Position numbers and translations under genes: made by a program | Notes under the pieces: model-generated | What the model saw: only the letters and a program-made list of their open reading frames with translations | What the model was told of the DNA's origin: nothing | Databases searched by the model: none | In this document: positions 27,590 to 31,355 of the stretch, piece by piece | Numbering within the stretch: position 1 is the stretch's first letter | Layout: each line of letters begins with the position of its first letter | Assembly: GCA_965226495.1 (NCBI GenBank) | Contig: OZ245365.1 | Location: 4,736,001-4,800,000 of the forward strand | Direction: 5' to 3' | DNA length: 64,000 nucleotides | Source of the DNA: Candidatus Marinacidobacterales bacterium | Lineage (GTDB): Bacteria > Acidobacteriota > Vicinamibacteria > Marinacidobacterales > DATDRI01

Positions 27590-28702
27590 GTGAAGATCGA
27601 AACGATTGAGATCCAAGAACTGAAGCTTGAGCTACTCTTCCCCTTCGAGACCAGCTTTGCTCGTGTCGACTACCAGCACTTCTTGGTCCTGAAAGTCCGG
27701 GTGGACGGGGTCGTCGGCTGGAGCGAATGCGTGGCCGACGAGGCGCCGAGTTATTCTTCCGAGACCATCCGCACCGCCTGGCACGTCATCGAAGATTTCA
27801 TCGCACCGGTGGTCTTCCAACGAGAATTCTCGCACCCGCGTGAGATCGTGTCTTCCCTAGATCTGATTCGGGGACACAATATGGCAAAGGCCGCGGTGGA
27901 GATGGCGTGCTGGGACGCTTACTCCCGCCAACAAGGAGAACCGCTTTCCAAAACGCTGGGAGGCACGAGAGCTGAGATCGAGTCAGGAGTTTCGATCGGA
28001 ATTCAAAAAAGCGTGGGGCAACTGCTGGAGAAGATAGAGACTGAATTAGCCAGTGGCTATCGACGAATTAAGATCAAGGTCAAACCGGGCTGGGATCGCG
28101 ATGTCGTCGCTGCCATCCGGAAGCGATTTCCCGACACTCCCCTTATGATCGATGCGAATTCCGCGTACAGTCTCGACGACATTCCGCTCTTCAAAGATCT
28201 CGACCAGTTCGATCTCATGATGATCGAGCAGCCTCTAGCGTACGACGACATTTGGGACCATGCGAAGCTCCAACGAGAGATACGAACTCCTATTTGTCTC
28301 GACGAGTCAATCCACTCTCCAGAAGACGCCCGGAAGGCGTTCGAAATGGGCGCCTGCCGCATCATTAACATCAAGGCCGGGCGGGTCGGGGGCCTGGTCC
28401 GAGCGAAGGCGATTCACGACGTGGCGGCTTCTCACGGTGCGGCGGTCTGGTGCGGCGGTATGCTGGAAAGTGGAATCGGCCGGGCGCACAACGTCCACCT
28501 TTCCACCCTCGAGAACTTCGCTCTGCCTGGCGACGTGTCCGACAGCAAGCGTTATTTCAAGGAGGAGGTCATCGAGCCGCGGGTGGAAGTCAGATCCGAC
28601 GGCACGATCGCCGTCCCCACCGAGGCCGGCATCGGCTACCGAGTGTTGGAGGATCGCATCCAGCGCCACTCGTTGAGTTCTGCTGTCCTGAAACGGACTT
28701 AA
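27590..28702 (+). CDS. menC: o-succinylbenzoate synthase / N-succinylamino acid racemase (NSAR/OSBS, enolase superfamily)
   Basis: PFETSF, RIKIK, DAN, IEQP, LDESI, NIK.GRVGG, WCGGMLE.GIGR, PGD.S. Confidence 0.92.
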   Translation: MKIETIEIQELKLELLFPFETSFARVDYQHFLVLKVRVDGVVGWSECVADEAPSYSSETIRTAWHVIEDFIAPVVFQREFSHPREIVSSLDLIRGHNMAKAAVEMACWDAYSRQQGEPLSKTLGGTRAEIESGVSIGIQKSVGQLLEKIETELASGYRRIKIKVKPGWDRDVVAAIRKRFPDTPLMIDANSAYSLDDIPLFKDLDQFDLMMIEQPLAYDDIWDHAKLQREIRTPICLDESIHSPEDARKAFEMGACRIINIKAGRVGGLVRAKAIHDVAASHGAAVWCGGMLESGIGRAHNVHLSTLENFALPGDVSDSKRYFKEEVIEPRVEVRSDGTIAVPTEAGIGYRVLEDRIQRHSLSSAVLKRT

Positions 28703-28707
28703 AACCC

Positions 28708-29800
28708 TTGCCTAGCTGTCACGCCGCGGTCATACCCGCTCCCGGTGTCGCGCCGGAGACGAGAGAAATCGCGATCCCCGATTTGGTACCAGGAGCGATT
28801 CTCCTGAGAACAATAGCCAGCGAGGTCTGCGGCACCGACGTCCACCTGTATCACGGGCGGTTGGACGGTGTTCCCTATCCCCTCATTCCCGGCCATATCT
28901 CGATCGGGCACGTCGAGGAGATGATCTCCGAAGTGCAAGACGCCGAGGGCAATCTCATCCGCCCCGGCGACACCGTCGTGTTCTATGACGTCATCGGAGC
29001 TTGTGGGGGCCTGCTATGTCTGCTCGGTCGCCGCGACACCGACACGCTGCCCACACCGCAGGGTGTATGGCATCACATTGCCGGGCGACAGGCCGTCTGG
29101 TGGTTGGGCGACCCACATCTATCTCGAGCCGGGAACGAAGACACTCAAGCTGACCGAGGGGCTCTCGGTCGAGGATTACATGGGTGGGGGATGCGGCCTC
29201 CACACCGGCTACCGAGCCGTTGAACGGGCGGACATCGAAATCGGGTCTTCGGTCTTGGTCATGGGCGCGGGACCGGTAGGGCTCTCCGCCACCGCGTTCG
29301 CACGTTTGGCCGGTGCGGGACTGGTTCTGGTCACGGGAGCGCCGGAAGCGCGACTCGAAGCAGCCCGTCACATGGAAGCGAACGCCACGATGGATATCAC
29401 CGGCTCCGAAAAAAAGGACCGGGTCGCATGGTCGCGTGAGCAAACGGAGGGACGGGGTCCCGACGTCGTGATCGAAGCGGCGGGACGACCGGAGGCGGTC
29501 GTCGAAGCGTTCGAGATTGTGCGGGAAGGCGGCACCGTCGTGATCGCAGGACAGTACACGGATGCGGGGGATGCAGTCTTCAATCCTCACCACCACCTGA
29601 ACCGCAAGCAGCTCGATGTGCGGGGCTGCTTCGGGTTCGAGTTCCGGCATTTCTATCGGGCCACGCGCTCGCTCACGACCATCGCCAAACGCTTTCCATG
29701 GCGAGAACTCATCACCCGGGAGTACACACTTGACGAAGCAGCTCAGGCTCTGGAAGACGTGGCAGCGCTCAAGGTTGTCAAGGCTTTGATACGCCCCTGA
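28708..29800 (+). pseudogene. Zn-dependent medium-chain dehydrogenase/reductase with a +1 frameshift (pseudogene or sequencing error)
   Basis: CGTD...PGH in one frame; CYVC...C, GAGPVG and IEAAG in the next; removing one G from the G5 run at 29005-29009 restores the C-x2-C-x2-C-x7-C Zn site. Confidence 0.85.
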
Positions 29801-29829: not shown

Positions 29830-30636
29830 ATGACCGCCCCGCGCTTTTTGTCTCTGAAGGAGGCGGTCTCCCTCATTCCGAGTGAAGCTTCACTGAGCCT
29901 CGGGGGATTCGATATCGTCCGGGCTCCGATGGCTCTCGTTTTCGAGCTCGTCCGCCAGGGAGGCCGACGGATCGAACTGATCACCGCTCCCAACCCCTTA
30001 GCGATGGACGTCCTCATTGGGGCGAAAGTAGCCTGCAAAGTGACCGCGGGTTTTTCCGGCTTCCAATACCAGCATGGGTTCGCGGTAGGGCCGATGTGGA
30101 AGCAGGCCGTCGAGTCGAACGAGGTCGATTACCGTGAGGTCGACGTTTACGCGATCCTCAGCGGCCTTCGGGCCTCGGCCCTCGGATTGCCGTTCCTTCC
30201 TTTGACCGATATCGATGGCTCCGAACTCACCGACCCCGAGCGATGGACCCGCGTGGAACATCCATTCGATGCGAAGCAGAAAGTGACGGTGACGCGCCCC
30301 ATACGGCCCGACTTCGCACTCATCCACGCCCAAGCGGCGGACCGAACGGGGAACCTTCGCATCGACGACCCGATCGTGGACGAGCTCGTCGCCAAGGCAA
30401 GTACTCGTGTCATTGCGACGGTGGAAACGATCACGGACCAAGTGGAGCGCCCCTCGGTACCTTTCTACCGCGTCGACGCCCTGGTCGAGGCTCCGCGGGG
30501 AGCGTGGCCGTCCGCTTGCCCAGGATACTATCCCGTCGATGAGGAGCACCTTCATCTATATATAGGGATGGCGGAAGGGGGACGCTTCGCCGACTACCGA
30601 CGCCAATTCATCGACCCCAAGGAAGGCACCTCATGA
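29830..30636 (+). CDS. aibA: CoA-transferase-fold alpha subunit, AibA-like (3-methylglutaconyl-CoA decarboxylase A)
   Basis: GGF...RAPMALV.EL..QG, PNPL, LRA...GLPF, PD.A..HA..AD..GNL; resembles recalled M. xanthus AibA. Confidence 0.7.
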   Translation: MTAPRFLSLKEAVSLIPSEASLSLGGFDIVRAPMALVFELVRQGGRRIELITAPNPLAMDVLIGAKVACKVTAGFSGFQYQHGFAVGPMWKQAVESNEVDYREVDVYAILSGLRASALGLPFLPLTDIDGSELTDPERWTRVEHPFDAKQKVTVTRPIRPDFALIHAQAADRTGNLRIDDPIVDELVAKASTRVIATVETITDQVERPSVPFYRVDALVEAPRGAWPSACPGYYPVDEEHLHLYIGMAEGGRFADYRRQFIDPKEGTS

Positions 30637-31355
30637 GCTTTGCGGTCGACACCATGCTTTCGGCCATGGCTCGTCTCATCCGCAATGGTGACGTGGTAAC
30701 GACCGGCGTCGCCTCCCTTCTCCCGATGCTCGCGGTAGGGTTGGCAAAAGAGACTCATGCTCCCGAGCTCACGTATTTGAACTGCGTCGGCGCGGTGAAC
30801 CCGGAGTGGACCGAGCTCCCCCACACGTCGGTCGAGCCGACGCTCCTCCCGGGTGCCGCGTTCATCCGACTCGACGAAATCTGGGAAATGGCCAACCAAG
30901 GAAGGGTCGACTTGATGTTCTTCGGTGCTTTTCAGATCGATGCCCGAGGCCGCACGAACCTCCACCGTCTTCGGTCGGGGCGCAAACTACCCGGCATAGC
31001 TGGCGCCTCCACGATGCGGAGGAAGGTCAAGTGGCCCGTCTTGTTTACGACGCGCCACGATCGCCGGACCTTCGTGGAAGGCGTCGACGCCGTAACGACT
31101 TCTGCTCGAGGCGACGAAACGACGCAGGTGGTGACGCCGCTCGGAATCTTGTCGCTGGGCGCGATGGAGTCCCGGATCGACTCCCTTCTGGCCGGTCGCA
31201 CTCTGCAGGAGATTCGGGACCGAACGGGCTTCCCGCTCACAACGCTCGAGACCCTCCAAACACTCGCCCCACCGAGTCGGGAAGAAGTCGAGGCTCTCGA
31301 CCGTCTGGACCCGGAAGGCAAGAGGCGAGTCTTCCTCAAAAACGACGGTGAATAG
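30633..31355 (+). CDS. aibB: CoA-transferase-fold beta subunit, AibB-like
   Basis: TGVAS, THAPELTYLNCVG (Cys where family I CoA-transferases have Glu), GRVD..FFGA...D..GRTN, PG.AGA. Confidence 0.7.
   Translation: MSFAVDTMLSAMARLIRNGDVVTTGVASLLPMLAVGLAKETHAPELTYLNCVGAVNPEWTELPHTSVEPTLLPGAAFIRLDEIWEMANQGRVDLMFFGAFQIDARGRTNLHRLRSGRKLPGIAGASTMRRKVKWPVLFTTRHDRRTFVEGVDAVTTSARGDETTQVVTPLGILSLGAMESRIDSLLAGRTLQEIRDRTGFPLTTLETLQTLAPPSREEVEALDRLDPEGKRRVFLKNDGE

Follow-up and report, generated by a model that had tools for sequence, protein, structure and literature searches.

The locus described here raises the question of what a gene pair with the fold of a coenzyme A (CoA)-transferase does in an acidobacterial genome in which the pathway expected around such a pair is not in evidence. 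The pair, A and B, encodes an alpha and a beta subunit resembling AibA and AibB of Myxococcus xanthus, and lies in the window, the 64,000-nucleotide stretch of contig OZ245365.1 from Candidatus Marinacidobacterales bacterium (Acidobacteriota) that was analysed as a whole. A sequence-only reading of this stretch had proposed that the pair is a decarboxylase rather than a CoA-transferase, and that it may belong to an alternative isovaleryl-CoA biosynthesis (AIB) route supplying primers for iso-fatty acids. The first half of this proposal is borne out by family membership, by a Cys at the catalytic position and by tree placement, whereas a role in an isovaleryl-CoA pathway in this organism is not. 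From comparison with its relatives, the pair is probably a functional, cofactor-free decarboxylase of the A/B family that would act on a glutaconyl-type acyl-CoA, here outside a complete AIB route.

Both open reading frames (ORFs) and the motifs quoted from them are real, with coordinates and translations as had been claimed; the alpha translation contains RAPMALVFELVRQG and PNPL, and the beta translation contains THAPELTYLNCVG. The two subunits were searched by sequence against all solved structures, and the top match in each case, aligned over its full length, was the corresponding subunit of AibA/AibB from M. xanthus (PDB 5MZW-5N03), with E values of 3.1e-58 for alpha against 5mzw_A (AibA) and 9.5e-43 for beta against 5mzw_D (AibB). 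For either subunit, this match beats that to glutaconate CoA-transferase by 37 orders of magnitude. The latter enzyme, GctAB (PDB 1POI), has the same fold and subunit arrangement and is the second-best solved relative of alpha (1poi_A, E 1e-21), whereas GctB carries the catalytic Glu where the window beta has Cys and is matched by beta at just E 4.3e-5 (1poi_B); a succinyl-CoA transferase structure is matched by beta at E 2e-6. Far more distant than AibA/AibB are also the 6CO6/6COJ/6CON chains, titled 'CoA-transferase subunit alpha/beta', with E values of 1e-13 to 1e-16 for alpha (1e-16 for 6coj_A) and about 1e-4 for beta (1.2e-4 for 6con_B). These chains are presumably IpdAB of actinobacterial steroid degradation, in which the CoA-transferase fold is used without the glutamate. 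Together, these comparisons support the assignment of the pair to the AibA/AibB type and not to the CoA-transferases, as the sequence-only reading had it.

The change at the catalytic position is evident from the alignment, in which Cys51 of beta stands at the place of the Glu, as had been deduced from the translation. The partner of Cys51 in the AibB chain 5mzw_D is the Cys of 'YLACVG', a position occupied by Ala in the mutant chain 5n00_B, and by residue count along the printed chain this Cys is Cys56B of PMC7756340. In that study, Cys56B, Glu72B, Ala133B, and Gly134B are named around the reacting group, Cys56B being the residue that replaces the beta Glu of the transferases in AibB. Direct decarboxylation to an enolate, followed by protonation by Cys56B, is the favoured mechanism, with Ala133B-Gly134B giving a backbone contact to the enolate and Glu72B proposed as the final proton source or as a relay to the Cys (PMC7756340). 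The window pair shares with AibA/AibB the two-subunit CoA-transferase fold, the Cys for Glu in beta and the Ala-Gly of PG(V/I)AGA. Among the 120 homologues listed, Gly124 of the latter motif is invariant (120/120) and the Cys51 column holds 27 Cys, 91 Ile, 2 Val, and no Glu, while NCVGA is found in all 24 of the closest homologues listed (60-98% identity). A conservation of 95% or more is reached by 46 columns among 65 beta sequences and by 47 among 64 alpha sequences, all either cluster-associated or myxobacterial; of these columns, 40 in beta and 38 in alpha (78 of 93 in total, 84%) are identical in the window and in its two orthologous loci, L014 and L015. Some of the changed columns show conservative substitutions (F to W, D to E, and L to I).

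Automatic annotation names the pair a glutaconate-type CoA-transferase; that it truly is one is extremely improbable. The name agrees with the Pfam CoA_trans match and with the source names of the homologues (JGI), which read 'glutaconate CoA-transferase subunit B', but neither beta nor any of the 120 homologues listed has a Glu at the catalytic position, and the scores against NCBIfam 3-oxoacid CoA-transferase models fall far under the cut-offs (35 vs 128.5 bits and 26 vs 243.6 bits). The closed, one-contig genome (6.34 Mb) encodes three alpha/beta pairs, and the transferase-like beta paralogues of the other two keep the Glu (IYESG and LYENG) where the window beta reads NCVG, so that, of the three, just the window pair has lost the Glu.

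To our knowledge, no decarboxylase with the CoA-transferase fold other than AibA/AibB has been characterised, and it is by homology to AibA/AibB that the reaction and substrate of the window pair are most likely to be of the following kind. A and B would form a heterodimer of the AibA/AibB family, predicted to be incapable of CoA transfer because the Glu that forms the enzyme-CoA thioester is replaced by Cys. This heterodimer would bind a glutaconyl-type acyl-CoA, either 3-methylglutaconyl-CoA or a close analogue, whose gamma-carboxylate would leave as CO2 without the help of a cofactor. The enolate that remains would then be protonated by Cys51 or by water to yield an enoyl-CoA, which is 3,3-dimethylacrylyl-CoA in the Myxococcus case.

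The position of the pair within its family was determined with a careful tree that comprised 54 beta sequences (part of a set of 90 rows, together with six myxobacterial rows), with Glu-bearing paralogues as the outgroup. The window beta falls inside a clade with myxobacterial AibB, namely a bacterial Cys-type clade with a support of 98/89. Within it, the window clade (100/100) has as its sister the pair L016 and P0029 (95/85), and L016 carries a full cluster of HMG-CoA synthase (HMG, 3-hydroxy-3-methylglutaryl), thiolase, DUF35 protein, A, B, and a medium-chain dehydrogenase/reductase (MDR) of AibC type. Genuine AibB falls in a neighbouring clade, also supported at 100/100, so that the window pair belongs to a sister subclade and not to the myxobacterial one. 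Its proteins are 37-40% (beta) and 39-44% (alpha) identical to the myxobacterial orthologues. The loci of the Myxococcaceae have the order TetR, A, B, MDR; in one of them, L086, beta matches 5mzw_D with few differences (402 bits), and the MDR adjoining aibB matches 5k1s at 627 bits, for which reason 5k1s is taken to be AibC. This identity is derived from gene position beside aibB, and a literature search found no paper for it. Close orthologues of the window proteins (62% and 67% identity) were found in two of seven other genomes of the family, a tally that includes one unpublished genome on which none of the other results rest, and all other matches were at most 38% identical. Two further groups of homologues were seen. 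Those with Ile at the Cys51 position (P0031-P0124; 91 of the 120 listed, plus the 2 with Val) are about 40% identical, form a clade of their own in the tree and come, by their source names, from Chloroflexota, Thermomicrobiales, and Methylomirabilis (Methylomirabilota). Four archaeal metagenome-assembled genomes of Acidilobaceae (L078, L079, L080, and L082) encode A/B pairs that are 30-33% identical to those of the window, have no partner genes and sit on a very long branch.

Relatives of the pair are mostly found in a pathway context outside the window clade. A scan of species-representative genomes gave 70 loci with related pairs, which were scored by tblastn against reference proteins and whose recurrent neighbours were named with Pfam and NCBIfam. 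By record title, most loci belong to Acidobacteriota classes, with three from Gemmatimonadota, two from Myxococcaceae, and four from archaeal Acidilobaceae. Upstream of the beta gene, 45 loci have 5.5 kb or more of sequence, and 36 of these carry an archaeal-type HMG-CoA synthase (a family scoring 488 bits with NF003274 and 461 bits with TIGR00748), a thiolase and a DUF35 (OB_ChsH2_C) protein. Downstream, 61 loci have 2 kb or more, and 54 of these carry an MDR matching 5k1s (E 3e-145); a TetR_C_24 regulator occurs in 43 of the 70. The cluster thus comprises genes for TetR, archaeal-type HMG-CoA synthase, thiolase, DUF35, AibA, AibB, and AibC, and the whole set from synthase to AibC-type MDR is carried by 39 of the 70 loci, which confirms that AibA/AibB-type clusters exist outside the myxobacteria, in Acidobacteria. 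The AIB pathway papers retrieved by a literature search concern M. xanthus or engineered hosts only, and none is tied to Acidobacteria. The A and B genes of the window are homologous to those of the myxobacterial AIB operon (aibR-aibA-aibB-aibC-mvaS) and of this Acidobacteriota/Gemmatimonadota variant, of which the nearest sister locus, L016, has a full copy. In contrast, no partner genes lie near the pair in the window or in L014 and L015, and the window MDR belongs to another subfamily; the latter two loci are among nine with enough flanking sequence but no synthase module.

Two variations on the cluster were observed in other loci. In one AIB-like subclade, a second pair with the CoA-transferase fold lies between DUF35 and AibA (L036:3878-5607 and 15-16 further loci, e.g. 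L073, L022, L018, and L025), and the beta sequence at the critical place, THAPDLIIRHG, lacks both Glu and Cys. Clusters with this second pair show no hydratase, and the pair may therefore supply the dehydration step. In L058 (7196-8783) and L071 (8515-10074), which have TetR, A, B, and AibC with no synthase nearby, the genes after the MDR encode a methyltransferase and a PlsC-type acyltransferase, which may indicate a direct connection with lipid synthesis.

The sequence-only reading had noted that neither mvaS nor aibR is present in the window. This is confirmed, and the absence of an mvaS-type synthase extends to the whole one-contig genome, where the best score was 31 bits with TIGR01835, the model of bacterial HMG-CoA synthase, and 43 bits with NF003274, the archaeal-type model, the latter on an ORF identified as FabH (425 bits with NCBIfam), and a synthase query of the cluster type scored 25 bits. 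Other searches of the same genome gave no HMG-CoA lyase over the cut-off (best 52 bits, on ORFs of 547 and 573 aa) and no HMG-CoA reductase domain. No TetR of AibR type was found at the locus, and one TetR_C_24 homologue is located at a distance of 0.53 Mb, in an unrelated gene context. AibC-like MDR paralogues (about 190 bits) and a thiolase/DUF35 pair are encoded elsewhere in the genome, in contexts that are not AIB-like. The search for branched-chain (Bkd) genes returned four E1-alpha genes, none of which reached the NCBIfam equivalog cut-off. Of the partners that the sequence-only reading had proposed to look for, a LiuC-like hydratase is present, as part of an Atu/Liu-type carboxylase cluster located 0.28 Mb from the pair (L107, G000:C1:5050327-5056773), and the HMG-CoA synthase is not found. 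L107 comprises carboxyltransferase beta, AtuA, enoyl-CoA hydratase, and biotin carboxylase alpha; the best matches of its crotonase in this search were PRK07468 and gamma-carboxygeranoyl-CoA hydratase, both below the cut-off. This carboxylase cluster could make 3-methylglutaconyl-CoA or a homologue, though solely by ATP-driven carboxylation, a step that the window enzyme would reverse. The cluster lies in a genome without a recognisable HMG-CoA lyase, and AtuA might take the role of the lyase in this context.

The other two genomes with members of the window clade give a similar picture. In G044, the genome of L015, genes for synthase, thiolase, and DUF35 are found on another contig, where the homology to the synthase runs across three reading frames and that to the thiolase across two, while each of the five genes of its A/B locus is in a single frame; the broken frames may reflect decay or assembly error. 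HMG-CoA reductase was not found in G044, and no synthase was found in G043, which is 73% complete. Clearly intact precursor supply is present in none of the three window-clade genomes.

These results bear on the proposal that the pair, the neighbouring Zn-dependent MDR and a LiuC-type hydratase make up a leucine-independent route from acetyl-CoA to isovaleryl-CoA, furnishing primers for iso-fatty acids. The AibA/AibB family assignment, the MDR lying immediately upstream of the pair, the LiuC/AtuE-like enoyl-CoA hydratase in the genome and the complete clusters in many other Acidobacteriota are all in its favour. It is nevertheless quite improbable, given the failure to find an HMG-CoA synthase of bacterial or archaeal type, the state of the synthase in G043 and G044 and the identity of the MDR, which is of the 1vj0 type and not AibC (5k1s) and is kept in the same-genus genomes G001 and G002 without A/B. 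A complete leucine-independent isovaleryl-CoA route is unlikely in this organism because its genome is without the enzyme that would feed it, HMG-CoA synthase, and the supply of iso-fatty-acid primers envisaged for the locus is not upheld, the MDR not being AibC-like and no TetR gene adjoining the pair.

The features of the locus are collected in Table 1. The stop codon of alpha and the start codon of beta share the sequence ATGA, so that the two ORFs overlap, and AAGGAAGG sits about 10 nt 5' of the beta start. The pair closes a run of four same-strand genes, made up of an enolase-superfamily gene of the N-succinylamino-acid racemase/o-succinylbenzoate synthase (NSAR/OSBS) type, hereafter menC-like, the Zn-MDR, alpha, and beta. 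This run is flanked on one side by a uppS-cdsA-dxr-rseP block and on the other by genes for a HEAT-repeat cyclophilin and a Cof-type phosphatase, ddl, tgt, and secDF. The G+C content of the window is 57-63%, and scans for promoters and terminators gave sites no more numerous than in shuffled controls.

Table 1. Features of the A/B locus, with positions counted from the first nucleotide of the window.
Feature	Position	Strand	Details
Alpha subunit, AibA-like (P0001)	29830..30636	+	268 aa; PF01144, 68 bits
Beta subunit, AibB-like (P0002)	30633..31355	+	240 aa; PF01144, 31.5 bits
Cys51 codon, beta	30783..30785	+	Place of the family I catalytic Glu and of AibB Cys56B, by alignment
Ala123-Gly124 codons (PGIAGAS), beta	30999..31004	+	Aligned with Ala133B-Gly134B (PGVAGA) of AibB
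Zn-MDR, TM0436 (1vj0) type	28720..29800	+	Split into frames P0003 and P0004; link to A/B doubtful
Enolase-superfamily gene, NSAR/OSBS type (menC-like)	27590..28702	+	TIGR01928, 374 bits; N-acylamino acid racemase structures, E 1e-102

The MDR gene adjoins the pair, 29 nt upstream. Its fragment in the window matches 1vj0 at E 4e-31 and 5k1s at just 1e-10, and the intact orthologue in L015 matches 1vj0 at E 1e-56, with 5k1s absent above E 1e-25; an AibC-type MDR is thus not found beside A/B in the window. The window gene is split by a frameshift due to one extra G in the run at 29005-29009. Twenty public sequencing runs from seven studies contain this stretch, and in the four that were compared, the contigs of two match the window and those of the other two have one G fewer, which restores the frame; the full-length contigs are otherwise identical over 2.8 kb. 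A metagenome relative, L116, which is 96.9% identical, also has one G fewer and an in-frame MDR. Since the runs are divided two to two and the relative has the in-frame form, the break is a polymorphism, neither an assembly artefact nor a fixed loss. The G5/G4 polymorphism could act as a homopolymer on/off switch or be a recent mutation in circulating stocks. The ratio of nonsynonymous to synonymous substitution rates (dN/dS) of the MDR is 0.16 and 0.21.

The gene order between rseP and the HEAT-cyclophilin gene differs among genomes. In the window and in L014 and L015, which represent other genera of the same family, it is menC-like, MDR, A, B. In G001 (same genus) it is menC-like and MDR, with A/B absent, and in G002 (same genus) these two genes are followed by a 48%-identical relic of beta residues 144-240; in G003, just a 48-residue relic of the menC-like gene is left. 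The flanking genes of G001 and G002 are 87-94% identical to those of the window. As both genomes keep the flanks and the MDR without an intact A/B, the pair is an accessory unit undergoing loss within the genus, and the MDR is independent of it.

Where the pair is retained, it is under purifying selection. A metagenome scan for close relatives yielded two loci, both from a near-identical strain, which were used for dN/dS and for the G run and not for gene context. Comparison with a metagenome relative of 96.7% identity gave a dN/dS of 0.14 for alpha and of 0.11 and 0.15 for the two parts of beta that were covered; these values are near the 0.17 obtained in the same comparison for the flanking housekeeping gene, HEAT-cyclophilin, and it is on this basis that selection is recognised. 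It has to be considered whether the pair is a decaying, functionless remnant of a lost AIB cluster, as might be thought from the missing HMG-CoA synthase, from the deletion or relic state of A/B in same-genus genomes and from the frameshift in the window MDR. This is very unlikely, however, as both frames of the pair are intact, its dN/dS is as low as that of the housekeeping gene, the conserved positions are kept, and the MDR frameshift is polymorphic and not fixed.

A different kind of alternative is that the pair, maybe together with the NSAR/OSBS-like enzyme and the MDR, has shifted to another reaction, for instance to hydrolysing, isomerising, or opening the ring of a CoA ester or free acid. 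Reactions of this kind are carried out by other members of the fold without the glutamate, for example the chains presumed to be IpdAB; the window clade has a long stem and a remodelled loop near the active site; and the usual pathway partners are missing. In addition, the menC-like gene, MDR, A, and B occur together in all three genomes with the window clade. The search of the window's genome gave no MenB over the cut-off (best 151 bits vs 342.7), and the menC-like gene may for this reason have a role other than in menaquinone synthesis, as N-succinylamino-acid racemase or otherwise. Against such a shift, the pair keeps 84% of the highly conserved positions, Cys included, and the 6co6/6con chains are far more distant from it (1e-16 and 1e-4) than AibA/AibB. 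The menC-like gene, which is the conserved neighbour of the MDR in five genomes, with at most a putative tie to A/B function, persists with the MDR where A/B is absent and hence does not depend on the pair. Other chemistry is thus rather unlikely.

Several observations weigh against the interpretation favoured here, that of a cofactor-free decarboxylase of a glutaconyl-type acyl-CoA. Unlike AibA/AibB, the window pair forms a subclade of its own on a stem as long as 0.8 changes per column. Beside its PGIAGA segment, beta has a shortened loop, bounded by Asn109 and Lys118. Glu72B of AibB aligns with Val67, which is followed by Glu68 (SSVEP vs SSEDL), in a loop whose register is uncertain; Glu68 is Ala in two of the 24 close homologues. 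Among the conserved columns, non-conservative changes affect alpha at Q111 (to S/C) and P126 (to T) and beta at A100 (to F/Y/I). In the absence of an HMG-CoA synthase, 3-methylglutaconyl-CoA has no apparent source other than the Atu/Liu-type carboxylase, and undoing its step would be a futile cycle.

A tentative extension of the decarboxylase reading is that the window clade represents a functional, cofactor-free acyl-CoA decarboxylase that descended from AIB-cluster enzymes, was cut off from HMG-CoA synthase and now serves another purpose. This purpose could involve a different gamma-carboxy-enoyl-CoA, the Atu/Liu-type carboxylase module, or the island formed by the NSAR/OSBS-like gene and the MDR. 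If true, the AibA/AibB fold would thereby have a second physiological role.

For annotation, the analysis corrects the label given by database sources, which name these proteins glutaconate CoA-transferase. Relatives of AibA/AibB, usually accompanied by a full isovaleryl-CoA gene set, are common in Acidobacteriota and Gemmatimonadota. Both phyla are rich in iso-branched lipids, and a leucine-independent primer route in them would affect the interpretation of their lipids and isotope signatures. The window pair itself, as a conserved and selected copy in a genome unable to make the expected precursor, offers a test of whether the family handles more than one substrate.

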